The translations under genes were made by a program, and so were the position numbers. From contig CBDBJR010000002.1 of the NCBI GenBank assembly GCA_965206445.1, positions 1,065,422 to 1,129,421 on the forward strand: 64,000 bases of DNA, read 5' to 3'. Source of the stretch: Candidatus Poriferihabitaceae bacterium. GTDB lineage: Bacteria > Pseudomonadota > Gammaproteobacteria > Arenicellales > Poriferihabitantaceae. Below are positions 25,053 through 43,730 of the stretch, piece after piece (the first letter of the stretch is position 1; every line of letters starts with the position of its first letter). Below the pieces are notes generated by a model, which made no database searches, was not told where the DNA came from, and was given only the letters and a program-made list of their open reading frames with translations.

Positions 25053-25107
25053 AGCGGCCAATACCGGGTATTTCTCTCGTGTTGACTCTCTTGTCGTTGA
25101 TCCTCTT

Positions 25108-26802: not shown

Positions 26803-26849
26803 ACCGAATAGTGCTATCAAATCGCTATTCACCATCGGCCAAATAGAGT

Positions 26850-27826: not shown

Positions 27827-27891
27827 TTCAATGTGTTCGAATTCGCTGCGGGGGTTAGCCCGCCGCTTTCTTATTGCATTTTATTTATGCC

Positions 27892-28875
27892 TCATTTGCT
27901 ATGCCTTCGGGCGATGAATTGGGCATGCGCCGCTTCGCCGCCGTTGTGCCAGGTGCCGAATAATTGATCCAACGGTGCGCGTGGATTGCCATAGTTGACC
28001 ATGAAGTAACGGTGGTGCAACTGATGGTGGTGGGTGCCGGCGGGAAACACACAACGCTTGCCGATTTTCACTTTCGCAAACCCGCAGTGTGAGAATGCCG
28101 GACCCAGCCCCGTAAAAAATCCGGTGGCAATGATGAGAATGGGGTCGACGGGTATCACCCACCACAACATCACCGGGCTGAAATACAGTACATGCTCAAG
28201 CGGGTGCATGGAAATCCCCGACCATGGACCCACATTCACATTGCGGTGATGCAACGCATGAGCGATGCGATACAGAGGCGGCCAGTGCAGGCAACGATGA
28301 ATCCAGTAGAAATGAAATGAGCCCCAGAAAAACATCACCAGAGTCATGCCCAGCAGATATCCGCTATGCGAATTCCAAGCGGGGGCGTGAATGCCGCCGC
28401 TGGCAACCCACCACAGCGTCATCGCTTCGTATAGCGACCAGATCAAACTACCGCTTACCAGGCTCCAGAACATATTATCCTTTACTTGATTGCCCCACAA
28501 AAAGGCGGGATTTTTCTTATGCAACCAGCGATCGTTAAATTTGAATTGCTTAGCCTGTCCGCGGCGGATATACAGATACCAATGTAATCCGCCCGCCACC
28601 AAACCGAGCAAGATCGCATTGCGCAGCCAAATCATGAGCATCCAACCCGGTTGCAAGCTGCTCATTACGGATAAGTCCGGCGTCAGAAATTTCCAACTCA
28701 ACGCCGCCAGTCCGAGAAAAAAGAGGCCATACGGGAAGACCAAATCTCTCCAGATCCACAGCAAACAGGCTTTGCACCGTAGCGGTAAGGAATAAATGGG
28801 TGGTAGCGATTCGGGCGACGGACGATATTCACCACCGAGGATAGAGGTATTTTCAAGTGTTTTGATGGTCAACAT
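27892..28875 (-). CDS. Fatty acid hydroxylase / sterol desaturase family membrane protein
   Basis: 327 aa, multi-TM, with His boxes HRCLHWPPLYRIAHALHHRNV and HHQLHHRYF. Confidence 0.8.
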   Translation of the reverse strand: MLTIKTLENTSILGGEYRPSPESLPPIYSLPLRCKACLLWIWRDLVFPYGLFFLGLAALSWKFLTPDLSVMSSLQPGWMLMIWLRNAILLGLVAGGLHWYLYIRRGQAKQFKFNDRWLHKKNPAFLWGNQVKDNMFWSLVSGSLIWSLYEAMTLWWVASGGIHAPAWNSHSGYLLGMTLVMFFWGSFHFYWIHRCLHWPPLYRIAHALHHRNVNVGPWSGISMHPLEHVLYFSPVMLWWVIPVDPILIIATGFFTGLGPAFSHCGFAKVKIGKRCVFPAGTHHHQLHHRYFMVNYGNPRAPLDQLFGTWHNGGEAAHAQFIARRHSK

Positions 28876-28931
28876 AATTCACCCCCGTTGGTGAGTTGGT
28901 TGATAAAAATGGTTTATTAAAAAATAACCTA

Positions 28932-28970
28932 TAAAAGCGGCGGCGATTATGCCAACCCACCGCCGCTTTT
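28932..28970 (-). terminator. Hairpin terminator between the GMC oxidoreductase and desaturase genes (symmetrical, could act in both directions)
   Basis: AAAAGCGGCGG-cgattatgccaaccca-CCGCCGCTTTTT: 11-bp stem flanked by A and T runs, 20 nt downstream of the GMC stop. Confidence 0.6.
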
Positions 28971-28989
28971 TAGTAACGCTAACTCGCGA

Positions 28990-30561: not shown

Positions 30562-30575
30562 TGTGTTGTCCTCGC

Positions 30576-31127
30576 TTATAACCAGTCGATGTCATTAAAA
30601 CCGCGGCGAATGTATCCGCCTTTGGATGCGGATTCGCCCTCGTAGCCAAAAATCGGCCATGCGTCCTGGTTGTTGTAGATTCCTGTTACCAGAGTGGATC
30701 GCAATTTCTGGAAAAATGCATCACTTTGCATGGCGCGCAGAATGTCTACGCGCTGTATTTCCCAACCCACATCAAGATAATCCACATCGTGCGATTTTTG
30801 CGCCGCTTGATTAAGGGCGGATACGCCGCCTTCCAGCAAACTTTTTACACCATCATCATTCACAGCATCGGCATCAAAACCTTCTACGACTTTCGCATAA
30901 AAGGAATCGGCAAGTTGGTCATGCGGATATATATCACGACACGCTTGCACGAGAGTTGCGAACGATTCTGGCTTAAGCGATTTGGCGGTGGCTGACCACG
31001 CGCTTTGTGCGCCGATAATCATGCCGGAGGGCAGCACCGACATTGCTATTAATGCACCTCCATCAGTCAGCACCTTGCGGCGCCCGCTATCGAAATTGTG
31101 ACTACCATTAAGTCGTGTTGGTTTCAT
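30576..31127 (-). CDS. Gluconate 2-dehydrogenase subunit 3-family protein (Tat-signal small subunit)
   Basis: MKPTRLNGSHNFDSGRRKVLTDGGALIAMSVLP... ATG at 31127 is preceded by GGAG. Paired with the GMC flavoprotein. Confidence 0.7.
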   Translation of the reverse strand: MKPTRLNGSHNFDSGRRKVLTDGGALIAMSVLPSGMIIGAQSAWSATAKSLKPESFATLVQACRDIYPHDQLADSFYAKVVEGFDADAVNDDGVKSLLEGGVSALNQAAQKSHDVDYLDVGWEIQRVDILRAMQSDAFFQKLRSTLVTGIYNNQDAWPIFGYEGESASKGGYIRRGFNDIDWL

Positions 31128-31189
31128 GTTGTACTCCGTTAAGAAAGTGGATTTTACATAAGATATTTGCATTGCAAGTAAACGACCGT

Positions 31190-31585
31190 TTAGACATAAC
31201 GACCGTGACTCTGCAACACCTCAATTTTATAGCCGTCAGGATCTTGTATAAAGAAAAATCTGGCCATTAATTCCCCGTCACGATGGAATTCCTTTACATC
31301 CGTTGGATGCATACCCTCACCAACAAGGCGCGCATGCTCGCTATCAACATCGGCAACGCAGACCGCCAGGTGGCCGTACCCACTGCCGTGCGTATAGGGT
31401 TCTTGCTGGTTGTGATTAATAGTCAGTTCAATTTCAAAATCGTTCTCTTCGTTTTTCAGATACACCAAAGTGAACCCGTCAAACTCAAACCGACTTTTCA
31501 CCCCAAGATTGAATGCCTTAAGGTAAAAGTCCACTGACTTATTTTCGTCAAAGACGCGGATCATCGAATGAATTGCTTTTGCCAT
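31190..31585 (-). CDS. Glyoxalase I / VOC-family lyase (lactoylglutathione lyase-like)
   Basis: 131 aa. HSMIRVFDENKSVDFYLKAFNLG...GYGHLAVCVADVD...FIQDPDGYKIEVLQ is the typical GloA pattern. Confidence 0.8.
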   Translation of the reverse strand: MAKAIHSMIRVFDENKSVDFYLKAFNLGVKSRFEFDGFTLVYLKNEENDFEIELTINHNQQEPYTHGSGYGHLAVCVADVDSEHARLVGEGMHPTDVKEFHRDGELMARFFFIQDPDGYKIEVLQSHGRYV

Positions 31586-31900
31586 GGTTTTCTCGCGGTT
31601 GGTCGTTATAAATTGCTATCTTGTTAATGCAGCCGAATAATCGGGTTGTATGCATATAAAAAAATCTGCACGCGCACATTGAATGTCAAAAAATCCGCTT
31701 TTTGCAAGCGATTTGCAAGGTTTTTTGCAGCAGTATTGAATAATAATTGGCAAATTTACGCTTTTTTGCCAAATACCCCAAAAACCACCCCCAACCCCAC
31801 CATCAAAAACACAAAAAAGCGGCGGAGACTTTCGCCCTCGCCGCCATTTTATAACCCGTGATGTAGATAATCTCAAACCGAAACGGGTTGCTGGTGGGAA

Positions 31901-32075
31901 ATTTGCCGCAAGCAGGGCCGCGCGGTGCGGGTAATCGGTGCGTTTGAATTGGTCGCGGAGCGTATCGGCCGGGACGTAAAATAAGCCCCCACTGGTGTCG
32001 AGTAGCCCCTGCCTCGGCCTGTAAACCCCGCTATAACGCGGCTTCCGGCAACTGGTTGATTGCCAAAGGTGCCGG
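31901..32075 (+). repeat. Direct repeat copy B (5'-truncated LysR tail + IS right-end fragment)
   Basis: See copy A. The LysR part here is only the last ~85 bp of the gene (…ICRKQGRAVRVIGAFELVAERIGRDVK*). Confidence 0.85.
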
Positions 32076-32084
32076 AGCTATACA
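31998..32084 (+). mobile_element. IS right-end fragment retaining the terminus (...GCCAAAGGTGCCGGAGCTATACA)
   Basis: Same alignment as 27750-27826, but it continues to a ...CTATACA end like the ...CCATACA / ...TTATACA ends of the other copies. Confidence 0.6.
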
Positions 32085-32168
32085 ACGCTTCTTAAAAGCG
32101 AGTTTTGTCATCCACAACCTGCCTCCGCAGTCTGTAAGCGGGGGCGGGTTAGTACCGCGTTTTACTGG

Positions 32169-32188
32169 ATTCCCGCTTGCGCGGGAAT
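32169..32188. repeat. REP-like palindromic element ATTCCCGC-TTGC-GCGGGAAT (followed by GACGG)
   Basis: Perfect 8-bp stem with a 4-nt loop. The GCGGGAATGACG-type motif is a common intergenic palindrome in proteobacteria. Confidence 0.5.
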
Positions 32189-32477
32189 GACGGTTCTATT
32201 TCATACCCATCCCACCACCGTTTCCGCGCGGCACGCTGCTGCTTGACGAATACAACAGCAATACCGGCAAGCGCATCACTTATCCGTACCCTGCGTGGAG
32301 TGATACCGATTATCGGCATCGATAATCGGCATTGCCGGGCGTAAAGTGCAGGCAGGCGGATTGACAGGGCAGGGCAGAATTGCCCCCGGCAAATGCGGTA
32401 TATTCAGGGTGCCCGGCTTGCAACCCGGGCGGGGTACGGGCTGTCCGGGGCGGAGCGCAACCGCCATCGATAACGCG

Positions 32478-33322
32478 CACAGCGGGGAGAACAGGCAGTG
32501 ACACAACCGGCACAACAGGCACCGCAAACGCGGGCATCGCGCCCCGCGTGCGCCGCCTCGCCGGCCGCCGGCAGTTATGACGTGGTGCTCGTGGGCGGGG
32601 CGATCATGGGCGCATCGACGGCGTGGTTCCTTACCGACAACCCCGATTTCGACGGCTCGGTGCTGGTGATAGAGCGCGACCCGAGTTACGAGAAGTGTTC
32701 GACGGCGCACACCAACAGCTGCATGCGACAACAGTTTTCGACCGAACTGAATGTGCGCATCTCGCAGTTCGCCGCCGACTTCGTCAACCACCTGCGGCGT
32801 TACATGGGCGGCGACCGCCGCGTGCCCGAGCTGGCGATTCGCAGTTTTGGGTATATGTACCTCGCGGATTCGCCGGACTTCGCCGCGGTGCTGCGCGCGA
32901 ATCAGCAAGTGCAGCGGGCGGCCGGCGCGGCCACGCAATTAATGACGCCGGACGAGATCAAGCGCAACTACCCGTTCTACAACGTCGACGACATTGTGCT
33001 GGGCTCGATCAACCTGGTGAACGAAGGCCTCTGGGACGGTACCGCGGTATTCGATTGGTGGCGCCGCTCGTCAAGCGAGCGCGGGGTGGAATACATCGCC
33101 AACGAAGTGGTGGCGATGACGAAAAATGCCGCCGGCACGCGGGTCGAAAGCGTCACGCTGGCCACGGGTGAGGTGATCGCGTGTGGGCAGGTGGTCAACA
33201 CCTCCGGGCCGCGCGCCGCGCGCACCGTAGGCATGGCCGGCATCACCGTGCCGGTGGAGCCGCGCAAACGTTTTTCCTGGGTGTTTTCCGCCGAGCGGCC
33301 GCTGGACCGCGACTTGCCGCTG
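32478..33322 (+). repeat. 845-bp duplication, copy 1
   Basis: Collinear with 41690-42534 (offset 9212, no indels, about 7 mismatches by eye). Confidence 0.9.
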
Positions 33323-33361
33323 TCATTGCGAAAATTCCAATCGCTGGAATTCGCATTATAA
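32498..33361 (+). pseudogene. 3'-truncated duplicate of the FAD-dependent oxidoreductase gene (first 275 codons + 12 foreign codons)
   Basis: Same N-terminus as 41710-42969 (VTQPAQQ...SYDVVLVGGAIMGASTAWFL). Homology stops after ...DRDLPL, and the tail SLRKFQSLEFAL* is unrelated. Confidence 0.8.
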
Positions 33362-33421
33362 CGCAGGGCGGGGCAAGCGACTCGCCCCGCCAAATTCGTC
33401 CGTCCTTTTATTTTGCCGACG

Positions 33422-35083
33422 CTATGCGGCTTGCGCCGCCTCTTTCATTGGAGGCGGAATAGCGGCGACAGCGGAAGAATCCTCCCGCAGCGATTTAATC
33501 ACGCCCCAAGTTATCAGCAGCAGAATAATGCTGACCGGAAAAGCGGCGGCAATGGATGCCGTCTGCAACGCTCCGAGTCCGCCGGCAACCAGCAGCACGG
33601 CGGCGACGAGTCCTTCGCCCAATCCCCACATGATGCGGAATTTCTGCGGCGGGTTGTCGTTGCCCATGCTGAGCATCGTGGTTATCACCAGCGTGCCGGA
33701 GTCGGACGAAGTGATGAACCATGTGGATATGAGGAATGTCGCCAATGCCGCAATCGCCCAAGTCGCCCAGCCGAAATTCATCGCTCCTATCGTTGTGTAG
33801 AGGGCGGTGGATATATCCTCGTTGACCGCGCCGATGATGTCAGTGTCGGTCTGGAACAGCGAGAGCAGGGCGGATTGTCCGGCGCCGGCCACGACGGTCG
33901 GCCCCTCGCTGAATAATTCCAAATGCAATGCGCTGCCGCCGAAAATCGCCAGCCAGAAAAAAGCGATGGAAGTCGGCACGAACATCACCCCGACCATAAA
34001 TTCCCGAATCGTCCGGCCACGTGAAATTCGGGCGATGAACATTCCGACGAAAGGCGCCCACGAAATCCACCAGCCCCAATAAAAGATTGTCCATGCGCCC
34101 TGCCACGCCGACGATTTTTCGCCGCCCGCCGTCCAGAATCCCATCGGCACGACATTCCACAGATAGTCGCCGACAGTGGTGATGAAAAACCCAAGCAGCC
34201 ATTTTGTCGGTCCGATCAGCAAAAACGCCCCGACCAAAATTATGCTGAGATAAATGTTCCATTCGCTGATGATGCGGATTCCCTTGCCGACGCCGGAAAC
34301 CGCCGACAGAGTCGCCACCGCCGAAATGACAGCAATAAGAATAACCTGCGTCATCACCGTATTGTCGATATCAAACAGATATTTCAGCCCGGCTCCCATC
34401 TGGCTCACGCCGAGCCCCAGCGAGGTGGCGACGCCGAACACCGTGCCGAAAACAGCCAGCAAATCGACGGCGTTACCGATTGGCCCGTAGATTTTGTCGC
34501 CGATAATCGGATGCAGGGCGCTGCGCAAAGTCAGCGGCAATTTTTTCCGAAAGCCGAAATACGCCAAGCACAGCCCGACCATCACATAAACCGCCCAGCC
34601 GTGGAATCCCCAATGGAAATAAGTCACGCGCATGGCGATGATGGCGGCGGATTCCGACTGCGGAGCAACGCCCGCTTGGTCTTGAAACGGATTCCCTTGA
34701 AAATGGTAAATCGGCTCGGCGATGGACCAGAACAGCAAACCGATTCCAACGCCGGCCGAAAACAGCATCGAAAACCACGAAAAATTTGAAAATTCGGGGC
34801 GCGAGTCGTCGTCGCCGAGACGAATGCTGCCGAAGCGGCTGAACATCAAGTACAGCGTGGCGAAAAACACCACCGACACGGTGGAAATGTAATACCAGTT
34901 GAGCGTCGATTCCAGCCAGCCGCGCACGGCGCCGTAAATGGAATTGGCGAACTCCACATTGAGTATCGTGAAAATCACGAACGCCGCCACAATGCCTTTG
35001 GCGGCGAGTGCCATGCCGGGATGCAGGCCGTTCCAAAATCCGGCGGTTGCCACGCCGATGCGCGGCTGAGGGGTGCTATTCAT
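33422..35083 (-). CDS. BCCT-family (betaine/carnitine/choline) transporter
   Basis: 553 aa from the ATG at 35083, which is preceded by GGAGG (MNSTPQPRIGVATAGFWNGLHPGMALAAKG...). Contains the Trp-rich BCCT-type block WTIFYWGWWISWAPFVGMFIARISRGRTIREF. Confidence 0.9.
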   Translation of the reverse strand: MNSTPQPRIGVATAGFWNGLHPGMALAAKGIVAAFVIFTILNVEFANSIYGAVRGWLESTLNWYYISTVSVVFFATLYLMFSRFGSIRLGDDDSRPEFSNFSWFSMLFSAGVGIGLLFWSIAEPIYHFQGNPFQDQAGVAPQSESAAIIAMRVTYFHWGFHGWAVYVMVGLCLAYFGFRKKLPLTLRSALHPIIGDKIYGPIGNAVDLLAVFGTVFGVATSLGLGVSQMGAGLKYLFDIDNTVMTQVILIAVISAVATLSAVSGVGKGIRIISEWNIYLSIILVGAFLLIGPTKWLLGFFITTVGDYLWNVVPMGFWTAGGEKSSAWQGAWTIFYWGWWISWAPFVGMFIARISRGRTIREFMVGVMFVPTSIAFFWLAIFGGSALHLELFSEGPTVVAGAGQSALLSLFQTDTDIIGAVNEDISTALYTTIGAMNFGWATWAIAALATFLISTWFITSSDSGTLVITTMLSMGNDNPPQKFRIMWGLGEGLVAAVLLVAGGLGALQTASIAAAFPVSIILLLITWGVIKSLREDSSAVAAIPPPMKEAAQAA

Positions 35084-35175
35084 GGTTGTGCCTCCGTTTT
35101 TTATTAGCGAAGTTGAATTATTACCATAATTCTCCCCGCTGTCAAATAACCGGACGGGGAAATTTGAGGGAGAAA

Positions 35176-35673
35176 TTAAATGTTGAGGATGATTTTTACA
35201 TCGTCCGGAAAGTATCGCTTTTCTAAATTGTCGCCCGGGCCAATGCGGTCGGCGACTAAAAAGTCGCCTCCCGAATCCAATGCAATCAGCGGATAATGCC
35301 ATATACCACGACGAAAATTTATTCCGCGCCCCGGCTCAACAATAAACGCCCGCAGCGATTCCGCCAAAATTTCATCGCCAAGCGGCGCGACCACAACCGC
35401 GAATCTTCCCGCCGTCATCGGCACAAACGCCTGCGAACCCAAGGGATGGCGCTCCAGCATTTCAATTCGCAGCGGCAATTTTCGGGCGGCGGCGCGAAAA
35501 ATGCTTAGTGCGGCAACGCCGTCTTTCGCCGCTTCCACGCGGGCGAGGTCGTTGAATCGCCATGCAGTGCCGTCATTAACGGAAAAATGCGGGCGTCCGT
35601 CGGCTTCTATGACATCGCCGAAAGGCGCGAAAGATTCGCTCGTGAGAGGCAGCGGCGACAGCGAAATTTTCAT
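35176..35673 (-). CDS. allA: Ureidoglycolate lyase-family protein
   Basis: 165 aa. LTSESFAPFGDVIE...LERHPLGSQAFVPM...RGIWHYPLIAL matches the AllA/ureidoglycolate hydrolase family. Confidence 0.75.
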   Translation of the reverse strand: MKISLSPLPLTSESFAPFGDVIEADGRPHFSVNDGTAWRFNDLARVEAAKDGVAALSIFRAAARKLPLRIEMLERHPLGSQAFVPMTAGRFAVVVAPLGDEILAESLRAFIVEPGRGINFRRGIWHYPLIALDSGGDFLVADRIGPGDNLEKRYFPDDVKIILNI

Positions 35674-35699
35674 TTTTCACGCCGACCCGGCCCCGCTAC

Positions 35700-35942
35700 G
35701 CCCCGCCCCGGCCCGTACCGCCCCATTGGTCGCCGCGCCCCGGTGCCGCACGCGCAAAATCCGCAGACTCAAACACCACCGCCCGCCACCGCTGTTCCCC
35801 AGCCTGGCCCTGTTCAACCGGAAAATGGCCGCGTGGCTGGTGCCTGTAACACGCCATTCTCCACCATAGCCTCGGTCTGCAACCCCCGCCACAATGCCGC
35901 TTTCAGCAACTGCCTGATTGCCAAAGTCGCCGGGCCTGCATA
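35700..35942 (+). mobile_element. 5'-truncated, internally deleted derivative of the IS (no DDE core), right terminus retained
   Basis: Reads ...PAPARTAPLVAAPRCRTRKIRRLKHHRPPPL|FPSLALFNRKMAAWLV.. and then, frameshifted, HSLGLQPPPQCRFQQLPDCQ. Compare the intact ...HAPARISPTGRLKPLLRTRKTRKPKHYRSPPL[~117 codons]LFTDLALFNRKMAAWLVEYNTVIPHHSLGLQTPIQFGFQQLPQCQ. Confidence 0.75.
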
Positions 35943-35948
35943 TTTTGC

Positions 35949-35978
35949 TTGACTTTGTCTGCAACCAAACGATAGTAT
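35949..35978 (+). promoter_or_regulatory. Candidate sigma70 promoter for the adhesin gene (TTGACT-N18-TAGTAT), starting 6 nt after the IS remnant terminus
   Basis: Hexamers read directly from the sequence. It lies 128 nt upstream of ATG 36106. The same TGCTTGAC...TAGTATG arrangement recurs at 50147-50178. Confidence 0.35.
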
Positions 35979-36105
35979 GCGAGCGCCTGAGCTTCCCACG
36001 CAATCATGCTATGCAGGGCTAACCGCCTTCCAGTCAGGCAATACACTGAGTGGAAAACAGCATGGCGGGAAGAAATTTAAATCGCAATCACACATTAATT
36101 GAGGA

Positions 36106-39100
36106 ATGAAAGACATGCAAAAAAGTAACTCAGTAACCGGGATTTCATCATTGATCAGGTTGACCGATAAAGGTCGGCATTACACACGACTCCTGCTGTG
36201 TACGGCGGCTCTCCTTGCAATATTTTGTGGGGGGGGGGGGGGGGGGGTAACTTCCGCCTGGGGGCTTGCGATAGGAGAAGGTGCCGATGATGTCGTCGCT
36301 TCTATCCCGAGCTATGCCAATGTGGCAGAGTTTTTGGCCAATGCGGATCGGTATGAGGACCGAAATGCCGAAATAAACGGGCGTCTCTATCCTATTTATC
36401 TTCTTCGCGAATTTGAAGATGCTCCCGGCAATACCCTGACCGATGCTAACCTGGTTGCAACCTATACCGATTTAGTAGCATTCAGGGACGCCGCTGGGCG
36501 CACCGGAACGGTGTTTGCCGTGGTTGGAGGCGAGCTCTATAGGTCGAACACTTTAGATGTGTTGGGAGAAGACGCCTCGCCGGAATCTCTCGGGTTTCGC
36601 ACTACTGCGGTGGGTGACAGAGCCAGGGCTACTGGCTATGATGCCACAGCCGTGGGACAGGGTGCGAGAGCCTCCGGCGATTCATCCACTGCCCTGGGTC
36701 AAAGTTCTGGGGCACAGGGTGGTAATTCTATAGCGATCGGTGACCATGCCCGATCCTATGGTGGCAGGTCCATTGCTCTCGGGGCTTTTGCTCATAGTGG
36801 TGGCGACAGATCTACCGCAGTAGGGCGGATCTCCGTCACTTACGGAGAGCGTAGCAGCGCGTTTGGTAATTACGCCCACGCGCTGGGACGGCACTCCACT
36901 GCGCTGGGCCAGAGCGCCTACGCGGCCAATCTGGCACCCGGTGAAGACTTTGAGGATGTCATCGCTGCCGACAATAATCTGGGATATCCCCCCGAATTAA
37001 TTGAATGTGCTCTCGACCAGAGAGCCTACGTACCGGATTGCCTGAAATACTACACCGATCAGGAAAAGGCCAATTCGCTGTTAACCGCCGAGAACGCCGA
37101 AGGTGAAGCGTTCCGTGCCGGCATTCAGACGCGGTTGCAAGGCGTTTTGGATGGCCTTACTGTAGAGCGCGCCACCGCCGTAGGTGACAGCGCCAGAGCG
37201 ACAAACGATGATGCTACCGCCGTGGGACAGAGTGCAGAAGCCTCCGGCGATGAATCCACTGCTCTGGGTCAAAATTCCGGGGCACAGGGTAGTAAGTCTA
37301 TAGCGCTCGGTTACAATGCCCGTGCCTATGGCCTTAGGTCCGCTGCCCTTGGGGATTTTGCCCATAGTGGCAGCGATAGATCTACCGCAATAGGGGGTGT
37401 CTCCAGTGCTTATGGCCAGCGTAGCAGCGCGTTTGGCCACTACGCCAACGCGCTGGGACTGCGCACCACTGCGTTGGGCAATGGTGCCTATGCGGCCAAC
37501 CTGGCACCCGGTCAAGAATTTGAAGATGCCATCGTTGCCGACAGCCCGGGATTCCCGCCCGAATTAATTGAATGTGCTGCGGATAACAAGCCCTATATAC
37601 CGGATTGCCTGAAATTTTACACCGCTGAGGAACAGGCCGATCCGCTGTTAGAGGTCGATTCCCCCGCAGGCGATGCGTTCCGTGCCGGCATTCAGACGCG
37701 GTTGCGGGAAGACATTTTGGATGCCCTTACTGTAGAGCGCGCCACCGCCGTAGGCGACAGCGCCAGAGCCATAAATGATGATACTACCGCCGTGGGGCAG
37801 GGGGCGGAAGCCTCCGGCGATCAATCCACCGCTTTGGGACAGGAGGCGAGAGCCGCCGGCGATGATGCCACCGCCCTGGGGCAGAGGGCGAGAGCCACCG
37901 GTGAAGATGCCACCGCCGTGGGGCAAGGCGCGAGAGCTACCGACCGGCAATCCACCGCCCTGGGTCAGCTTTCCGGCGCGCAGGGTGAGAATTCTGTAGC
38001 GCTCGGCGACCATACCCGTGCCTATGGTGACAGGTCTACTGCTCTCGGACAATTTGCCCATAGTGGTGGCGAAAGATCTACCGCAGTAGGGCAGATTTCC
38101 AGCACTTACGGGGATCGTAGCAGCGCGTTTGGTCGCTACGCCAACGCACTGGGACTGCGCTCCACTGCGTTGGGTCACGGTGCCTACGCGGCCAATCTGG
38201 CACCCGGTGAAGACTTTGAAGATGTCATCGCTGCCGACGATAATATGGGAACTCCCGACGAATTAATTGAATGTGCTCTCGACGCTGAAGTCTATATACC
38301 GGATTGCCTGAAATTTTACACCGCTGAGGAACAGGCCGATCCGCTGTTAGAGGTCGATTCCCCCGCAGGCGATGCGTTCCGTGCCGGCATTCAGACGCGG
38401 TTGCGGGAAGACATTTTGGATGCCCTTACTGTAGAGCGCGCCACCGCCGTAGGCGCCGATGCCCGTGCCATAAACTCTTTTACCACCGCTATAGGCGTCA
38501 GCGCGGAAGCATCCGGCGAAGGATCCACCGCTGTGGGTGCAGGCGCAGAAGCCGCCGGCAGACTATCCACCGCCCTGGGCGCAGGTGCAGTCGCCCGTCG
38601 AGACAATCAGATTGTGCTGGGCGTCAGGTCAGTCGAGGATGACCCCGCCACTACCGGTGTGGACGAAACGCGCGCTGCCAGCACGTATACTCTGCCGGGC
38701 TTGCCCGATGATTCGGCGTCCGGTCCCCAGTTGGTAACCACCGATGCCGATGGCAACCTTGCCACCGACGGTGGCAGCGTGCGGCGCGAGATTGCAGCCG
38801 GTGATGCCGCCCTGCGCAACGATTTGGGTACGGCTGCGGATGTGGCGGCTGCGGACGGCAGCGTCTATGCGCGCATAGGCGCTGAGATTGCCGCCCGTGA
38901 AACTGCCGTGAGTGGCATTGAAAGCGCGTTATCCAGCCTGAGCAGCGGTGGCGTCGGGGAACTGGGAGCGGAAAGGGCCGCTCGAATGTTGGGTGATGCC
39001 GCCCTGCGCACCGATTTGGGCACGGCTATGGATCCGGAGTCTGCGACCGGCAGCGCCTATGCGCGCATCAGAGCTGTGCAAAGTGGTTTGGGCGCGGTTG

Positions 39101-40407
39101 GCGATCCGGCGTCTACGGGCGGCAGCGCCCATGCGCGCATCAACGCTGTGCAAAGTGTTTTGGGCACGGTTGACGAGCTGATGGATGCGGAAGGCAGCGC
39201 CCATGCGCGCATCAGCGCTGTGCAAAGTGGTTTGGGCACGGCTACGGATGCGGAGTCTGCGACCGGCAGCGCCTATGCGCGCATCAGCGCTGTGCAAAGT
39301 GGTTTGGGCACGGCTGACGATACGGCGGCTGTGGACGGCAGTGCCTATGCGCGCATCAGCGCTGTGCAAAGTGGTTTGGGCACGGCTACGGATGCGGAGT
39401 CTGCGACCGGCAGCGCCTATGCGCGCATCAGCGCTGTGCAAAGTGGTTTGGGCACGGATGGGGATGGGGCGGATATGGACGGCAGCGTCTATGCGCGCAT
39501 CAGCGCTGTGCAAAATGTTTTGCGTACTGGCGATGCGATTAGCGCGGCGAATGCCGCCCGAGTTGTTGAAGAAGAGGTCGGGTCTGCGGTTGAAACCGTC
39601 GACGAGGTGAGCGATTTGATCGAAGGCGAAACGGTGACACTGGACGAGGAACGGACAGCAACGAGCCAGGCCGTGGTCCTGAGAGGCGGTAGCGTTAACC
39701 AGAAAGTGGCGTATCTGGCCACCCGAATTGGTACAGCAGTTGATCTGGACGCCCCAATCGTGATTTTGGATGATGACGGAGTTGAGATTCCACTGAATAC
39801 GAAGGAAGAACAGTTCATACAACTCGGCGTGGACCGGGGCGTGGTCCAGCAAAACCAGTTAATGTTCCGTCACCTGTTCGGCACCCCGACCGGTTCTGCC
39901 GAGGGCGCCAATAGCGTTGACCCGGACCCCGGCAGTATCGCAGGGAGAGTCGGTCAAATGGAAGAGGGTGTCGGTGAAATGAAAGCGGGTGGCGGTTTTG
40001 ATCTTGAGCGGGCTACTGATATGCCCGCCGCAGGCGTGACGCGCCGTGTGGTGGTAGAAGAGACCGAGGGGCCCCCGGGGGGCCGCACCACACGGTTGAG
40101 AACGCTGGATTTGGGCGCTCTGGGCGGCTTGGATCAGCGTGTAGACGGCTTAAACCGGCGGGTGGAAAGCTTATCCACGCAGCTGGACGAGGGCATCGCC
40201 ATGTCTGCGGCGCTGTCCGCTTTGCCTAACGCTGTTCCCGGCAAAGGCCGCTATACCCTCGGTCTGGGGCTGGGCAATCACGGGGGCTCGTCGGCGGTCG
40301 CAATGGGCTTCGCCGGTCGTTTAAAGAAGTCCACCCACATCAATATCGGTATTTCGACAGCGGGCGACACGATTACCAGCCGTGCCGGGGTGAGTTGGTC
40401 CTGGTAG
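36106..40407 (+). CDS. Trimeric autotransporter adhesin (YadA/Hia family), 1433 aa
   Basis: N-terminal signal-like segment. Many YadA-head (Hep_Hag-like) repeats (ATAVGxxAxAxGxxSTALGQ...). Repetitive stalk. C-terminal YadA-type anchor (GIAMSAALSALPNAVPGKGRYTLGLGLGNHGGSSAVAMGFAGRL...GVSWSW*). Confidence 0.9.
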   Translation: MKDMQKSNSVTGISSLIRLTDKGRHYTRLLLCTAALLAIFCGGGGGGVTSAWGLAIGEGADDVVASIPSYANVAEFLANADRYEDRNAEINGRLYPIYLLREFEDAPGNTLTDANLVATYTDLVAFRDAAGRTGTVFAVVGGELYRSNTLDVLGEDASPESLGFRTTAVGDRARATGYDATAVGQGARASGDSSTALGQSSGAQGGNSIAIGDHARSYGGRSIALGAFAHSGGDRSTAVGRISVTYGERSSAFGNYAHALGRHSTALGQSAYAANLAPGEDFEDVIAADNNLGYPPELIECALDQRAYVPDCLKYYTDQEKANSLLTAENAEGEAFRAGIQTRLQGVLDGLTVERATAVGDSARATNDDATAVGQSAEASGDESTALGQNSGAQGSKSIALGYNARAYGLRSAALGDFAHSGSDRSTAIGGVSSAYGQRSSAFGHYANALGLRTTALGNGAYAANLAPGQEFEDAIVADSPGFPPELIECAADNKPYIPDCLKFYTAEEQADPLLEVDSPAGDAFRAGIQTRLREDILDALTVERATAVGDSARAINDDTTAVGQGAEASGDQSTALGQEARAAGDDATALGQRARATGEDATAVGQGARATDRQSTALGQLSGAQGENSVALGDHTRAYGDRSTALGQFAHSGGERSTAVGQISSTYGDRSSAFGRYANALGLRSTALGHGAYAANLAPGEDFEDVIAADDNMGTPDELIECALDAEVYIPDCLKFYTAEEQADPLLEVDSPAGDAFRAGIQTRLREDILDALTVERATAVGADARAINSFTTAIGVSAEASGEGSTAVGAGAEAAGRLSTALGAGAVARRDNQIVLGVRSVEDDPATTGVDETRAASTYTLPGLPDDSASGPQLVTTDADGNLATDGGSVRREIAAGDAALRNDLGTAADVAAADGSVYARIGAEIAARETAVSGIESALSSLSSGGVGELGAERAARMLGDAALRTDLGTAMDPESATGSAYARIRAVQSGLGAVGDPASTGGSAHARINAVQSVLGTVDELMDAEGSAHARISAVQSGLGTATDAESATGSAYARISAVQSGLGTADDTAAVDGSAYARISAVQSGLGTATDAESATGSAYARISAVQSGLGTDGDGADMDGSVYARISAVQNVLRTGDAISAANAARVVEEEVGSAVETVDEVSDLIEGETVTLDEERTATSQAVVLRGGSVNQKVAYLATRIGTAVDLDAPIVILDDDGVEIPLNTKEEQFIQLGVDRGVVQQNQLMFRHLFGTPTGSAEGANSVDPDPGSIAGRVGQMEEGVGEMKAGGGFDLERATDMPAAGVTRRVVVEETEGPPGGRTTRLRTLDLGALGGLDQRVDGLNRRVESLSTQLDEGIAMSAALSALPNAVPGKGRYTLGLGLGNHGGSSAVAMGFAGRLKKSTHINIGISTAGDTITSRAGVSWSW
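36229..36247 (+). repeat. Homopolymeric G19 tract within the adhesin coding sequence (codons 42-47, GGGGGG)
   Basis: Counted directly: ...ttttgt + 19 g + taacttcc. Confidence 0.95.
36600..38470 (+). repeat. Three long tandem passenger-domain modules (570, 570 and 699 bp periods)
   Basis: TGTAGAGCGCGCCACCGCCGTAGG recurs at 37161, 37731 and 38430. The blocks 37593-37756 and 38292-38455 (164 bp) look identical. Confidence 0.85.
39049..39552 (+). repeat. 7 x 72-bp (24-aa) in-frame tandem repeats in the adhesin stalk
   Basis: GGCAGCGCCTATGCGCGCATCAGCGCTGTGCAAAGTGGTTTGGGCACGG... starts at 39049, 39121, 39193, 39265, 39337, 39409 and 39481. Peptide unit: GSAYARISAVQSGLGTxxDxxxxx. Confidence 0.9.
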
Positions 40408-40428
40408 CCTGTCAATACAACCTGAGAA

Positions 40429-40460
40429 CCCCTGCGGCTGAGCGGTCGCAGGGGTTTTTT
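40429..40460 (+). terminator. Rho-independent terminator of the adhesin gene
   Basis: CCCCTGCG-gctgagcggt-CGCAGGGG followed by TTTTTT, 22 nt after the stop. Confidence 0.8.
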
Positions 40461-40605
40461 AATTGCCATTGCCGTACTCGGCTGGTTTTGACAACCCCCC
40501 CTACGCCGAGACCCTGGAAGGACTAGAGGCCATCCGCCCATACGACGCACCTTGTAGTATAAGCAGTCACTCCGCCGTGGGGCTTTCGCAGAGTGGGTGT
40601 GGGCT

Positions 40606-41689
40606 TGTATAAGCTCAGAAACCTTTGGCACTCTGCCCCAAGAGGAGAGCCATGCAAATTCACCATGCCGGATACCGCATCCGGGGGTTTTACCGAGTAG
40701 CTCATTCAGGGCATGTTTGGGGGATGACTTCCAAACATGCCCAACACCGCCTTGCGATCGGGGAATTTTCCGACCGGCACGGCAAAATCGCTGCCAGCGA
40801 GGCCTTTAAGGTCAGCATTCGTACGCTCTATCGCTGGCGTCAGACCCTCAAACACAACGCCGGCAACGCCGCCGCGCTCACGCCTGAATCCTGTGTACCG
40901 CACCGGCGCAGGCGACCAGTCACGCCACCGCTCCTGAGCGAGCAAATCCGGCAATTGCGCCGACAATACCCCAACCTCGGCAAGGCCAAACTCCATGTAT
41001 TATTACGCGACTGGTGCGCGCAGCGGCGACTGGCGCTGCCGAGCGTCTCCACCATCGGGCGCATCATTGCCAAAGACCCGCATAAAATGCGCCACGCTCC
41101 CGCGCGTATCTCACCCACCGGGCGCCTCAAACCGCTGCTGCGTACCCGTAAAACACGCAAACCCAAACACTACCGGTCGCCGCCACTGGCCCTGTTTGCC
41201 TGCGATACCGTGATGCGCCTGCGCGACGGCATCCGCCGCTACCTGTTCACCTTCATCGACCCCAACAGCCGCTTTGCCATTGCCTTTGCGGCCAATTCTG
41301 CTACCAGCCGCAACACCTCCATCGCCCTGGAGGCGCTCACCGACCTGCTGCCCGTGCAACCGCAATTCCTGCTCTCCGATAACGGTTCTGAGTTCATGGG
41401 TGATTTCCAGCAACGCCTTAATCAGCTCGGTATTGTCCACTGGTGGACTTACCCCAGGTCACCCAAAATGAATGCCCATTGTGAGCGCTTCAACCGCACC
41501 ATACAGGAGCAGTTCGTGGATTATCACGCCGACTTGCTGTTCACTGACCTGGCCTTGTTTAACCGCAAAATGGCCGCCTGGCTGGTCGAATATAACACCG
41601 TCATTCCCCACCATAGCCTCGGTCTGCAAACTCCGATACAATTCGGCTTCCAACAACTGCCACAGTGCCAAAGGTATTGGACCCATACA
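40606..41689 (+). mobile_element. Intact IS element, IS481-like family (1084 bp), imperfect ~26-bp terminal inverted repeats
   Basis: IRL is TGTATAAGCTCAGAAACCTTTGGCACT. The reverse complement of IRR is TGTATGGGTCCAATACCTTTGGCACT (shared TGTAT end and an 11-bp core CCTTTGGCACT). Single DDE/rve transposase ORF. No flanking target duplication seen. Confidence 0.75.
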
Positions 41690-41713
41690 CACAGCGGGGA
41701 GAACAGGCAGTGA
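40724..41713 (+). CDS. DDE (integrase-core, rve) transposase, IS481-like
   Basis: MTSKHAQHRLAIGEFSDRHGKIAASEAFKVSIRTLYRWRQ (HTH), then ...ACDTV...LLSDNGSEF...AHCERFNRTIQEQF...YNTVIPHHSLGLQTP. The ORF runs through the IRR and stops at a TGA in flanking DNA. ATG 40724 is preferred; the upstream ATG 40625 is possible. Confidence 0.85.
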   Translation: MTSKHAQHRLAIGEFSDRHGKIAASEAFKVSIRTLYRWRQTLKHNAGNAAALTPESCVPHRRRRPVTPPLLSEQIRQLRRQYPNLGKAKLHVLLRDWCAQRRLALPSVSTIGRIIAKDPHKMRHAPARISPTGRLKPLLRTRKTRKPKHYRSPPLALFACDTVMRLRDGIRRYLFTFIDPNSRFAIAFAANSATSRNTSIALEALTDLLPVQPQFLLSDNGSEFMGDFQQRLNQLGIVHWWTYPRSPKMNAHCERFNRTIQEQFVDYHADLLFTDLALFNRKMAAWLVEYNTVIPHHSLGLQTPIQFGFQQLPQCQRYWTHTHSGENRQ

Positions 41714-42534
41714 CACAACCGGCACAACAGGCACCGCAAACGCGGGCATCGCGCCCCGCGTGCGCCGCCTCGCCGGCCGCCGGCAGTTATGACGTGGTGC
41801 TCGTGGGCGGGGCGATTATGGGCGCATCAACGGCGTGGTTCCTTACCGACAACCCCGATTTCGACGGCTCGGTGCTGGTGATAGAGCGCGACCCGAGTTA
41901 CGAGAAGTGCTCGACGGCGCACACCAACAGCTGCATGCGACAACAGTTTTCGACCGAACTGAATGTGCGCATCTCGCAGTTCGCCGCCGACTTCGTCAAC
42001 CACCTGCGGCGTTACATGGGCGGCGACCGCCGCGTGCCCAAGCTGGCGATTCGCAGTTTTGGGTATATGTACCTCGCGGATTCGCCGGACTTCGCCGCGG
42101 TGCTGCGCGCGAATCAGCAAGTGCAGCGGGCGGCCGGCGCGGCCACGCAATTAATGACGCCGGACGAGATCAAGCGCAACTACCCGTTCTACAACGTCGA
42201 CGACATTGTGCTGGGCTCGATCAATCTGGTGAACGAAGGCCTCTGGGACGGTACTGCGGTATTCGATTGGTGGCGCCGCTCGTCAAGCGAGCGCGGGGTG
42301 GAATACATCGCCAACGAAGTGGTGGCGATGACGAAAAATGCCGCCGGCACGCGGGTCGAAAGCGTCACGCTGGCCACGGGTGAGGTGATCGCGTGTGGGC
42401 AGGTGGTCAACACCTCCGGGCCGCGCGCCGCGCGCACCGCAGGCATGGCCGGCATCACCGTGCCGGTGGAGCCGCGCAAACGTTTTTCCTGGGTGTTTTC
42501 CGCCGAGCGGCCGCTGGACCGCGACTTGCCGCTG
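41690..42534 (+). repeat. 845-bp duplication, copy 2
   Basis: See 32478-33322. It starts at the first nucleotide after the IS right terminus. Confidence 0.9.
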
Positions 42535-42969
42535 ACCATCGACCCGGCCGGTGTGCACGTGCGCGAAAACGGGGGCGGCACCTATCTGTGCGGCGGTCAC
42601 GCTGCGGTAGACCCGGCCGTGGAATACGATGATTTTCAGCTGGATCAGAGCCTCTGGGAGCAGCATATCTGGCCGGTACTGGCCGCGCGCATCCCGCAAT
42701 TCGACGCGATCAAGGTGACCCATGAATGGGCCGGGCACTATGCCTGGAACAGCTTCGATCACAACGCGATCATGGGGCCGCATACCGCGGTAGAGAACTT
42801 TATTTTTCTCAACGGCTTCTCGGGGCACGGCTTGCAGCAATCCCCCGCAATGGGGCGCGGCACCGCGGAATGGCTGACCTACGGCGAATATCGCACGCTC
42901 GACCTCCGCGCTTTCCATTATAATCGCATCGTGCGAAATGATCCGATTATAGAGCGGGCGGTGATATGA
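41710..42969 (+). CDS. FAD-dependent oxidoreductase (DAO / D-amino-acid or sarcosine-oxidase-like family), full-length copy
   Basis: 419 aa from GTG 41710. YDVVLVGGAIMGASTAWFL is the dinucleotide-binding motif, and the C-terminal part (GFSGHGLQQSPAMGRGTAEW) is typical of the DAO family. The GTG overlaps the transposase stop (GTGA). Confidence 0.8.
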   Translation: MTQPAQQAPQTRASRPACAASPAAGSYDVVLVGGAIMGASTAWFLTDNPDFDGSVLVIERDPSYEKCSTAHTNSCMRQQFSTELNVRISQFAADFVNHLRRYMGGDRRVPKLAIRSFGYMYLADSPDFAAVLRANQQVQRAAGAATQLMTPDEIKRNYPFYNVDDIVLGSINLVNEGLWDGTAVFDWWRRSSSERGVEYIANEVVAMTKNAAGTRVESVTLATGEVIACGQVVNTSGPRAARTAGMAGITVPVEPRKRFSWVFSAERPLDRDLPLTIDPAGVHVRENGGGTYLCGGHAAVDPAVEYDDFQLDQSLWEQHIWPVLAARIPQFDAIKVTHEWAGHYAWNSFDHNAIMGPHTAVENFIFLNGFSGHGLQQSPAMGRGTAEWLTYGEYRTLDLRAFHYNRIVRNDPIIERAVI

Positions 42970-43730
42970 AATTGCCCACCAATGCATTCCTGCAAGCGCT
43001 GCGGGCGGGTAAGCCGCAGCTCGGCATCTGGGTGAGTCTGTGCAGTTCGCTCTGTGCCGAGGTGGTGGCCGGCGCCGGTTTCGACTGGGCGGTGATCGAC
43101 ATGGAGCATTCCCCCAATGAGGTGGATTCGGTGATGCAGCAGTTGCAGGCGTTTGCCGGCTATCAAACCACCCCGATTGTGCGCCCGGACTGGAACGACC
43201 CGGTGAAGGTCAAACGGCTGCTGGATGTGGGGGCGCCGGGGCTGTTGTTCCCGATGGTGCAATCCCCGCAGGAAGCCGCTCGGGCGGTTGCCGCCGTGCG
43301 CTATCCACCGCGCGGCATCCGCGGCGTATCCGGCTTTACCCGGGCCAACCGGTTTGGCCGGGTGGATGATTATTTCGCCCGCGTGGAGGACGAAACGGCG
43401 GTCATCGTACAGCTCGAAACCCGCGCCGGCGTGGCGCAGGCGGCGGCGATTGGCAGCACCGACGGCATCGACGGCGTGTTCTTCGGCCCCGCCGACATCG
43501 CCGCCGACCTGGGCTATCTCGGCGAGCCGATGCACGCCGATGTGTGGCATCTGATTCGACCTGTGGCGCACAAGCTGATCGAGGCCGGGGTACCGGTGGG
43601 CACCCTCGTGCTCGACCCGGCGTTCGCCCGGCGGCTGCTTGATGAGGGATTTTCCTTTGTGATCTGCGGCGCCGACAGCACCTTGCTTGCACGCGGCGCC
43701 GAGCAGTTGCTCAGCAGCGTGCGCGGCTGA
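42966..43730 (+). CDS. HpcH/HpaI-family aldolase (2-keto-3-deoxy-acid aldolase)
   Basis: 254 aa. FLQALRAGKPQLGIWVSLCSSLCAEVVAGAGFDWAVIDMEHSPNEV...RYPPRGIRGVS is the family signature. ATGA coupling to the oxidoreductase gene. Confidence 0.85.
   Translation: MKLPTNAFLQALRAGKPQLGIWVSLCSSLCAEVVAGAGFDWAVIDMEHSPNEVDSVMQQLQAFAGYQTTPIVRPDWNDPVKVKRLLDVGAPGLLFPMVQSPQEAARAVAAVRYPPRGIRGVSGFTRANRFGRVDDYFARVEDETAVIVQLETRAGVAQAAAIGSTDGIDGVFFGPADIAADLGYLGEPMHADVWHLIRPVAHKLIEAGVPVGTLVLDPAFARRLLDEGFSFVICGADSTLLARGAEQLLSSVRG

Follow-up and report, generated by a model that had tools for sequence, protein, structure and literature searches.

A DAO-family FAD oxidoreductase gene is present twice, once truncated and once complete, in the 64,000-nucleotide stretch of Candidatus Poriferihabitaceae bacterium DNA analysed here (the window). 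Our results favour, by a modest preponderance of the evidence, the view that the 845-bp repeat shared by the two copies is what remains of a direct duplication that measured at least 1.6 kb. This duplication comprised the DNA upstream of the DAO gene together with its first 275 codons, it flanked a mosaic insert, and it was later trimmed at an insertion sequence (IS). Our best guess for the first event, an unproven one taken from the layout alone, is a Campbell-type single crossover.

The two repeat copies lie in the same orientation on the plus strand, copy 1 at positions 32478 to 33322 and copy 2 at 41690 to 42534, with an offset of 9212 bp. They were predicted to be about 99% identical, with no indels and some 7 mismatches counted by eye; recomputation gave exactly 7 mismatches (32605, 32617, 32698, 32828, 33013, 33043, and 33228 in copy-1 coordinates) and 0 indels. 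Both of the expected amino acid differences (E/K and V/A) were found. A repeat search and a self-BLAST of the window returned the same pair at 99.17% identity, and outside both ends of the repeat the identity drops to random at once. The predicted order of native flank, 5' part of the gene, insert, and complete gene is also correct, and the earlier gene map matches the open reading frames and the Pfam results. The spacing between the copies is 8367 bp and includes DNA from another locus. A simple tandem duplication was rejected, as copies so far apart, with foreign-locus DNA between them, are not head-to-tail.

Copy 1 consists of a 20-bp leader and DAO codons 1 to 275. As the original prediction had it, the truncated gene forms an open reading frame of 287 codons (32498 to 33361), with a tail of 12 foreign codons (SLRKFQSLEFAL), that ends 60 bp from the stop codon of the converging BCCT gene (33422). 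It covers Pfam DAO profile positions 1 to 236 of 353. Private nonsynonymous changes in copy 1 of other haplotypes (P0125) are consistent with pseudogene decay, and copy 1 is a decaying, 3'-truncated pseudogene that retains its native upstream DNA. Such retention had been proposed before, and it is borne out by two other haplotypes, L086 and L090, which have matching DNA in front of the complete gene. The native upstream region (31707 to 32477, plus strand) is single-copy in the window and is duplicated before the complete gene in L090. The 10-bp inverted repeat expected upstream of copy 1 was found at 32411 to 32430. An old relic of an IS right end lies inside the same region (31901 to 32084). 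Scans for sigma-70 promoters in the DNA before copy 1 and within the IS gave no sites, so that the idea of a promoter kept by copy 1 derives only from the retention of native DNA.

Copy 2 is the 5' part of a complete DAO gene (41710 to 42969, plus strand, 419 codons; Pfam and NCBIfam) and is parted from the native upstream DNA. The gene was described as full length and coupled to an HpcH aldolase gene, and indeed its stop codon overlaps, at 42966, the start of an HpcH/HpaI-type aldolase gene (42966 to 43730, plus strand; Pfam HpcH_HpaI and NCBIfam). Copy 2 belongs to the working gene, and we take the stretch from 41710 to 43730, with the complete DAO gene and the aldolase gene, as the functional operon. 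The DAO-HpcH adjacency is found in many distant relatives, at 73 to 82% amino acid identity. When the GTDB species representatives were scanned with the DAO protein, the best relatives among the matches listed reached at most 82% identity; the listed relatives are marine Alphaproteobacteria and Granulosicoccaceae. Synteny with these distant relatives is uninformative beyond the DAO-HpcH linkage.

The inner edge of copy 1, junction J1 (33322/33323), is a single illegitimate join that does not lie at an IS end. Here DAO codon 275 is joined to the 3' flank of a BCCT transporter gene, at a point that in the native purine locus lies 45 bp upstream of dctQ. Aligning the window with copy 2 and one native locus (L083) left a microhomology of 1 bp (G), and folding placed a hairpin at approximately 33327 to 33355, beginning 4 nucleotides downstream of J1. 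An IS-mediated segmental duplication, once offered as an alternative primary event, finds no support, given the position of J1 away from any IS end. Beyond the junction, a segment on the minus strand (33323 to 35684) contains a terminator hairpin, the BCCT transporter gene (33422 to 35083, minus strand), the ureidoglycolate lyase gene allA (35176 to 35673, minus strand; both genes by Pfam and NCBIfam), and the last 11 bp of an allantoicase gene. It is 97.4 to 98.1% identical to four native allantoicase-allA-BCCT-dctQ loci (L083, L087, L088, and L089), and its homology limits, 33318 and 35684, are the same against all four. There are 12 fixed differences from the native copies, and the island copies differ among themselves at 3 to 10 positions per 1818 bp. 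An intact native purine locus is found on a different contig, a circle of 1,985,076 bp, where it is next to alaS. The BCCT-allA fragment is a copy made from this purine catabolism locus, which itself is kept intact on the 1.985-Mb circle. A tetranucleotide comparison of the circle with the 3.4- to 4.0-Mb contigs did not discriminate as to whether they belong to one organism. Matching coverage tiers (134x/92x, 17x/12x/11x/10x, and 7x/5x) hint at two replicons.

At the other end of this segment the homology with the native locus stops at 35684, and J1 and the second junction, J2, are both nonhomologous joins. J2 leads into the deleted IS that the prediction had placed in the insert, which proved to be a degenerate relic on the plus strand (approximately 35685 to 35945). 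It has an internal deletion, lacks the left end, and shares 81 to 86% identity with the 3' part of the intact IS and with a partial copy at 49979 to 50116. The relic is followed by a gene for a YadA-type trimeric autotransporter adhesin (36106 to 40407, plus strand, 1433 amino acids; Pfam YadA_head and YadA_anchor) with internal repeats of 72 bp and of 570 to 700 bp. The adhesin is hypervariable between haplotypes: the form in L082 has 1669 amino acids at 85 to 94% identity, and the gene is absent in L090. A search of the adhesin flanks against the backbone and the native chromosome for the lost left boundary gave no homology. With the adhesin lying between the relic and the intact IS, which have the same orientation, this part of the insert resembles a composite transposon. 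However, the relic is from a different IS lineage, about 81 to 86% related, and has no left end, the outer edges show no target-site duplication, and neither the 845-bp duplication nor the BCCT-allA segment falls between the two IS. An adhesin composite transposon was rejected on the degenerate left element without a left end and the missing outer duplication.

The intact IS (40606 to 41689, plus strand, 1084 bp) lies directly before copy 2; its right end reads ...CCCATACA, and the next base is 41690. The terminal inverted repeats (TGTATAAGCTCAGAAACCTTTGGCACT and TGTATGGGTCCAATACCTTTGGCACT) are 27 bp long, imperfect, and of the TGT...ACA type. The transposase is encoded by one open reading frame of 353 amino acids (40652 to 41713), with HTH_32, rve, and rve_3 domains and no frameshift, which runs past the end of the IS so that its TGA stop overlaps the GTG start of the DAO gene. 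The best NCBIfam match is IS481 (NF033577), with 179.2 bits against a cutoff of 224; IS3 scores 93.5 bits. A DDE transposase with an N-terminal helix-turn-helix domain, TGT...ACA ends, and a short target duplication are features shared with the IS481 family, but with the score below the curated threshold we call the element only IS481-family-like. The short duplication is seen at an extra sister copy in L082 and L085, which is a simple insertion flanked by 5 duplicated bp (ATAAC) and whose empty site in the window is at 35146 to 35150. No target-site duplication is present at the intact IS of the window or at the left end of the L090 copy, which is expected after an adjacent deletion or recombination between IS copies. 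Both processes are well documented for many IS families. The copy-2 boundaries resemble IS-associated deletions in that they start at an IS terminus, vary in reach (with ends at 31707, 32370, and 32478), and lack a target-site duplication; from sequence alone, a transposase-mediated deletion looks the same as the outcome of homologous recombination after another IS copy has inserted.

The comparison of haplotypes decides how the boundary of copy 2 should be read. All of the haplotypes with which the window was compared come from one multistrain metagenome assembly, their contexts being retrieved via allA, HpcH, a glyoxalase gene, and the cluster members, and inferences at the level of single nucleotides are soft, as the 2x and 5x contigs may hold errors or strain chimerism. 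A database look-up of the exact proteins (window DAO, truncated DAO, BCCT, P0121, and P0130) found none on record. The continuity of the upstream DNA with copy 1, together with J1, is common to five haplotypes from independent contigs, and J1 is identical in the window, L082, L084/L085, and L090. The left boundary of copy 2 always falls at an IS terminus, but at three different positions: 32478 in the window, L082, and L001; 32370 in L086; and 31707 in L090. In L086, where the same IS meets the sequence at a point 108 bp farther upstream, 32370 to 32477 are kept and the repeat is 953 bp long. In L090, the adjoining IS is inverted and the point of contact lies 771 bp farther upstream, which makes the repeat 1616 bp long; directly after this IS, positions 13737 to 15353 of L090 match 31707 to 33322 of the window at 97.3%. 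There is no allA, adhesin gene, or second IS between the copies of L090, and the DNA between the repeats ranges from about 2.9 kb in L090 to about 10 kb in L082. As repeats of 1616, 953, or 845 bp go with a constant J1, the boundary at the IS right end is secondary, set by later trimming. The longer repeats of L086 and L090 therefore mean that at least 1.6 kb was duplicated originally and that the 9.2-kb unit is not fixed. Copy 2 of the window has lost at least 771 bp of native upstream DNA in an IS-associated manner. The earlier observation that the homology of copy 2 starts right after the IS end is true in the window, but as the footprint of a unit it fails in view of the later trimming seen with L086 and L090. 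Among the haplotypes, the distribution of the extra IS copy against that of the 32478 junction fails the four-gamete test, so that recombination between haplotypes or parallel events are needed.

Diversity is not uniform along the region. At 4-fold sites, the divergence between the window and other haplotypes is 0.3 to 0.6% in the BCCT gene and 0/90 in allA, whereas it is 1.2 to 6.7% in backbone genes, 1.2 to 4.3% in copy 1, and 1.8 to 4.9% in copy 2. The step lies at J1, and neutral-site diversity in the BCCT-allA piece is about 10 times lower than in its flanks. The youth ascribed to the insert therefore holds for its inner part, which is younger than the surroundings (0 to 0.6% against 1.2 to 6.7% at 4-fold sites). 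Purifying selection on the BCCT gene was rejected as the whole cause, as the 4-fold sites drop about 10-fold too. Orthologous IS copies differ by 1.3 to 4%, the adjacent BCCT gene by just 0.2 to 0.5%. The 99% identity of the repeat had been taken to suggest a recent event. This does not stand: the copies of a pair differ at 15/845 positions in L082 and at 47/1621 in L090, and across haplotypes copy 1 and copy 2 have no fixed differences and share polymorphisms in a mosaic. With mosaic copies of this kind, 99% identity is no clock. Copy 1 near J1 is not less diverse, contrary to a once-only integration without later recombination. Repeated Campbell reintegration as the source of the diversity step was rejected as well, as it predicts a nearly invariant copy 1 beside J1.

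In the sequence of events that we prefer, a DNA circle closed by illegitimate joining at J1 would have carried the upstream and 5' DNA of the DAO gene, the BCCT-allA fragment, the IS relic, the adhesin gene, and the IS, and would have entered the DAO locus by one crossover. The structure probably arose once. IS-associated deletions have recut the other edge of the insert three or more times, and here it now coincides with the right terminus of the IS. Ectopic or interstrain recombination may later have overwritten patches of the repeat and IS copies. With such patchwise overwriting, the identity of the repeat would say little about its age. There is a precedent in Escherichia coli lacZ, where illegitimately reclosed plasmid circles gave, by one crossover, partial-gene duplications of 109 to 950 bp (PMC3240628). 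As in Campbell integration, partial-gene direct repeats, one truncated and one complete, surround the insert, and each is bounded on the inside by insert DNA, copy 1 at J1 with the BCCT flank and copy 2 at the IS. The illegitimate inner edge of the truncated copy and repeats of a few hundred bp to 1 to 2 kb are further common features (PMC3240628). The differences are that no circle, empty site, or excision product was observed at the DAO locus, that the insert is without replication or integrase functions, and that one boundary has been rewritten by the IS, with the original homology segment lost. The Campbell-type insertion of the original prediction is thus formally consistent with the layout and has a precedent (PMC3240628), but the 9.2-kb circle with the IS end and 845 bp that it called for is not upheld.

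As the left boundary that copy 2 had at first has not survived, the duplication could also have arisen in situ, as a tandem duplication by illegitimate recombination, with J1 as its join, that ran from the BCCT 3' flank via allA, the relic, the adhesin gene, the IS, and more than 30 kb of backbone to DAO codon 275, most of the second copy being lost later to IS-associated deletions. We consider this unlikely. Bacteria commonly form large tandem duplications that are cut back afterwards, and the remodelling of their join points by deletion is known from amplification studies in Salmonella and E. coli. J1 is built like such a join point, being nonhomologous with a microhomology of 1 bp, the repeat unit was later shortened, and deletions of differing length from IS termini are seen directly in the region. 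In contrast to the known join points, the copies here are parted by DNA from another locus, and no second upstream copy is seen. On this view, a BCCT-allA-relic-adhesin-IS block is needed on the same replicon, over 31 kb away on the upstream side of copy 1, but none is found in positions 1 to 31700 of the window. An allA look-up gave one place only on the 3.96-Mb contig, and each of the four native BCCT-allA loci sampled lies on another contig and has dctQ beside it. Moreover, the BCCT-allA block is about 10-fold less diverse than the backbone that would have been part of the same duplication.

One-ended integration of linear DNA, or template-switching repair, could have duplicated the anchor and brought in foreign or ectopic DNA without any circle, with homologous recombination or restart of replication at one end, in the DAO region, and illegitimate joining at the other; this we regard as rather more doubtful again. 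It would fit with one homologous and one illegitimate side, with the hairpin directly beside J1, and with an insert that includes DNA copied from another locus. Homology-facilitated illegitimate recombination, however, usually deletes recipient DNA and uses a microhomology of 3 to 10 bp (PMC3240628). J1 has just 1 bp, and the same work ascribed its duplications to single crossovers of circles (PMC3240628).

The original prediction, a discrete circle of about 9.2 kb that carried the IS right end and exactly 845 bp, integrated recently, and is poised to excise, now seems highly improbable. The layout of the window fits it, and the inner block is young when compared with the backbone. However, the 845-bp boundary is derived, as repeats of 953 and 1616 bp with an unchanged J1 occur elsewhere. 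The size of the unit differs from one haplotype to another. The structure is common to haplotypes that differ by 1 to 3% in their flanks. L086 and L090 thus contradict such a circle, unless those contigs are misassembled. Relatives lacking the unit were anticipated, but neither an empty site nor a collapsed single-copy allele was found among the 10 members of the DAO cluster (at least 90% identity) in database contigs, all of which bear the island; with few close relatives sampled, this absence is weak evidence. All three Mb-scale contigs with the gene hold both the 287- and the 419-amino-acid forms, and the next DAO relatives after the cluster are only 82% identical. A donor arrangement without copy 1 was not found among the haplotypes compared, and pattern scans of JGI metagenomes for J1 and for the junction of the upstream DNA with copy 1 gave 0 matches. 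An integrative genomic island, with an integrase and att sites and often a tRNA gene, differs from this locus: the window contains no tRNA gene, and there is no tyrosine or serine recombinase between the repeats, where the only recombinase-like gene is that of the DDE transposase. An assembly artefact or a pair of old paralogous genes is hardly credible, as nothing speaks for it beyond the general assembly risk of repeats, identical junctions recur in independently assembled contigs (134x, 17x, 5x, 2x, and the window's own 3.36-Mb contig), which excludes a misjoin, the homology ends are sharp on both sides, and both copies of L090 have native upstream DNA; such features do not agree with independent paralogues.

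None of the mechanisms involved is new; they are part of ordinary bacterial genome remodelling. The locus shows several stages of this remodelling together: an illegitimate join, the capture of a transporter gene and a ureidoglycolate lyase gene that came from a different locus, IS insertion, three different deletions anchored at IS termini, and, in one strain, the disappearance of the adhesin gene. The tidy picture from a single genome is misleading, as a repeat at an IS end resembles a discrete mobile unit and only the comparison of strains reveals the later trimming. Under active ectopic recombination, the identity between repeats is also a poor clock. There is a slim chance that the BCCT-allA block, with or without the adhesin gene, is an integrase-less island that forms a circle via the DAO repeats and reenters, by a Campbell-type event, the intact DAO genes of naive coexisting strains. 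If this is true, the duplicated gene fragment would serve as a portable homology arm, and the approximately 10-fold lower diversity of the interior and the mosaic repeats would both be accounted for.

The DAO-family FAD oxidoreductase gene lies at a direct repeat of 845 bp (copy 1, 32478-33322; copy 2, 41690-42534), the two halves of which are separated by an offset of 9212 bp, differ at 7 positions without any indel, and fall at once to random identity beyond either end. Recomputation thus agreed with the original prediction of a ~99% duplication, and the gene map that came with it was correct by ORF and domain annotation of the window. The copy 1 ORF (32498-33361) has 287 codons, of which 275 are DAO and 12 are foreign, and ends 60 bp from the converging stop of a BCCT transporter gene (33422-35083, minus strand), the first of the elements between the copies. 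This is followed by allA, the ureidoglycolate lyase gene (35176-35673, minus strand), a degenerate insertion sequence (IS) relic (~35685-35945), a YadA-type adhesin gene (36106-40407), and an intact IS481-like IS of 1084 bp (40606-41689), whose right end, ...CCCATACA, touches copy 2. The copy 2 gene (41710-42969) is a full-length DAO-family gene of 419 codons that overlaps an HpcH/HpaI aldolase gene.

By exact-protein look-ups in one long-read metagenome assembly (ENA ERZ25069326), we reached several strain variants of the repeat locus: L082 (3.96-Mb contig, 134x), L090 (3.97-Mb contig, 17x), L084/L085 (25.8-kb contig, 5x), L086 (52-kb contig, 11x), and L001 (19-kb contig, 2x). The two DAO proteins of the window are identical to cluster members P0121 and P0127, which lie on a 3,360,156-bp contig (NCBI and ENA), so the window is an additional haplotype, assembled independently. 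The join between copy 1 and the BCCT 3' flank (J1, 33322/33323) is identical to the base in the window, L082, L084/L085, and L090, and so is the unbroken run from the native flank, the DNA upstream of DAO, into copy 1. This recurrence in separately assembled haplotypes excludes an assembly misjoin, which the original prediction had left as a possibility. The adhesin gene is hypervariable among the haplotypes (85-94% DNA identity; 1433 amino acids in the window versus 1669 in L082; gene absent from L090) and contains 72-bp tandem repeats (38928-39599) and three modules of ~570-700 bp (36598-38585).

The BCCT-allA piece (33318-35684) matches four native purine-catabolism loci (L083, L087, L088, and L089) at 97.4-98.1% identity, with identical end points in all four. 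The native gene order runs from xanthine dehydrogenase to alaS, with allantoicase, allA, BCCT, dctQ, and dctM in succession between them. J1 joins DAO codon 275 to a site 45 bp upstream of dctQ, with 1 shared base and an adjoining hairpin, and at J2 (35684/35685) the allantoicase gene, of which only the final 11 bp are left, runs into the interior of the IS relic; both are illegitimate joins. Twelve fixed differences set the island copies of the segment apart from the four native ones, so the segment's source was a related allele outside those sampled. L088 is located on a circular contig (ctg78811_92x_c, 1,985,076 bp, 92x), which holds both the native purine locus and alaS. Coverage tiers of the circle's strain variants parallel those of the 3.36-3.97-Mb contigs, a match suggesting that one organism may carry both the 1.985-Mb circle and the 3.4-4.0-Mb contigs as separate replicons. 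The closest named relatives of the alaS of the circle (Burkholderiaceae, Nitrosomonas) show ~50% identity and many ~2-Mb contigs show 55-58%, which indicates that the host belongs to an uncultured, deep-branching proteobacterial lineage.

The left boundary of copy 2 occurs in three versions among the haplotypes. In the window, L082, and L001, position 32478 directly follows the IS right end. The L086 copy of this IS shares its left flank and meets the equivalent of 32370, with 108 bp of native flank before the complete gene and a repeat of 953 bp. Between J1 and the complete gene, L090 has only BCCT and one inverted IS, without allA, the relic, the adhesin gene, or a second IS; the left end of this IS meets the equivalent of 31707, 771 bp of native flank precede the complete gene, and the repeat is 1616 bp. 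Because each boundary lies at an IS terminus, the start of copy 2 against the IS is a secondary, trimmed state and not, as had been proposed, the footprint of the founding event. The three boundaries also mark 31707-32477, including 32370-32477, as native upstream DNA of DAO and show that 1.6 kb or more was duplicated originally. Nor is there a fixed ~9.2-kb unit, as the repeats lie at different distances from each other in different haplotypes. The inverted IS in L082 and L085 is a simple insertion with a 5-bp target duplication (ATAAC), for which the window has the empty site; in L090 the duplication is gone on the deleted side. The IS adjacent to copy 2 lacks a target duplication in every haplotype compared. 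Deletions that vary in length but all begin precisely at an IS terminus are typical of IS-associated adjacent deletion, and a second IS insertion followed by IS-IS recombination is an equivalent route. Two intergenic IS right-end relics of ~180 bp each (27651-27826 and 31901-32084; 88.8% mutual identity, both ending in ...CTATACA) belong to an IS lineage ~74-78% related to the intact IS; the relic at 31901-32084 is present in both copies in L090 and is therefore older than the duplication.

Within a genome, copy 1 and copy 2 differ at 7/845 positions in the window, 15/845 in L082, and 21/845 plus 26/775 in L090, and one copy compared between haplotypes shows 8-22 differences per 845 bp. Among the haplotypes compared, no site splits all copy-1 from all copy-2 sequences, and at several polymorphisms both copies of one genome agree against both copies of another. 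The repeats are thus mosaic, and their 99% identity in the window is no clock for the recent event that had been read from it. At 4-fold degenerate sites, divergence between the window and the other haplotypes is 1.2-6.7% for backbone genes, 1.2-4.3% for copy 1, and 1.8-4.9% for copy 2, falling at J1 to 0.3-0.6% for BCCT and 0/90 sites for allA. As the drop is measured at such sites, purifying selection alone was rejected as the cause of the low island diversity. The simplest reading is that the insert arose once, later than the backbone diversity of a recombining population, and that DNA with homologues elsewhere (flanks, both DAO copies, and IS copies) was repeatedly overwritten up to the homology edge. 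Orthologous IS copies are 1.3-4% different. One IS insertion (L082 10529-11612, L085 3112-4195, and L090 12654-13737; same site and 5-bp duplication) is ~3% apart, with the adjoining BCCT only 0.2-0.5% apart. It appears that IS copies are overwritten with sequence from others in the same genome. The expected instability of the region is real in that IS activity remodels its structure, but the predicted collapse by recombination between the copies was not seen, with the 287-aa and 419-aa forms both present on all three Mb-scale contigs.

It is established that the duplication covered 1.6 kb or more, that one illegitimate junction is unique, that the BCCT-allA DNA was imported, and that trimming at IS termini happened repeatedly. 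The founding event may well have been a single crossover at DAO, by which a circle closed by illegitimate joining would have integrated. We favor this reading because one step would give the truncated copy with native upstream DNA, the complete copy, and the foreign-derived insert. Re-closed circles integrated experimentally at lacZ gave partial-gene duplications of 109-950 bp (PMC3240628), the same product as proposed here. The layout fits the integration originally suggested, with the IS-end boundary and the unit length being secondary or variable. The main rival, in which a tandem duplication in situ was later cut back by deletion, is unlikely, as the block would have to occur again more than 31 kb upstream and no sign of this was seen in window 1-31700 or in the allA look-up. 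One-ended linear integration or template switching is slightly less likely again. IS-mediated segmental duplication, the other mechanism put forward, was not the primary event, as neither J1 nor J2 lies at an IS end.

Copy 1 is a pseudogene, and in other haplotypes private and non-synonymous changes are piling up in it. L090 copy 1 has four private G>A changes (equivalent to 32996, 33017, 33231, and 33259), three of them non-synonymous, which could be pseudogene decay or a localized mutational cluster. Of its native upstream DNA, the working DAO-HpcH pair of the window keeps only a 20-bp leader; L090-type strains retain 771 bp before the working DAO. The transposase ORF (40652-41713) extends 24 bp beyond the IS end (41689), and its TGA (41711-41713) overlaps the DAO GTG start at 41710 (GTGA). 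Together with the upstream loss, this overlap makes expression of DAO from the IS plausible, possibly by read-through or coupling. In L086, a different flank lengthens the same ORF to 415 aa. The 5' leaders of DAO (32479-32491 and 41691-41703, plus strand) and BCCT (35130-35142, minus strand) share an exact 13-mer, ACAGCGGGGAGAA, which has no further exact copy in the 64-kb window. It could be a regulatory or ribosome-binding element common to these genes, which are now neighbors, or a coincidence.

A further strain-specific breakpoint lies at 46621 (region 46621-50132). Past it, the window has a truncated glutamine-synthetase-like fragment (46570-47361), an FMO-like gene (47439-49229), and a partial IS (49681-50132); L001, L086, and L090 have tctABC, a LigB-family gene, and an aldehyde dehydrogenase gene.

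The locus adds a fresh case of processes already known, in which DNA is integrated or duplicated with an illegitimate join and then remodeled by IS; its strain series makes it neat rather than surprising. To the left of copy 1, the backbone (21000-31600) encodes a GBBH/TauD-like dioxygenase, an HD-domain protein, an ABC transporter, a LysR regulator, a fatty-acid-hydroxylase-like protein, a GMC oxidoreductase, and a glyoxalase-family protein. By annotation, these genes look like a quaternary-amine catabolic cluster, and if they are, the captured BCCT transporter would suit it functionally.
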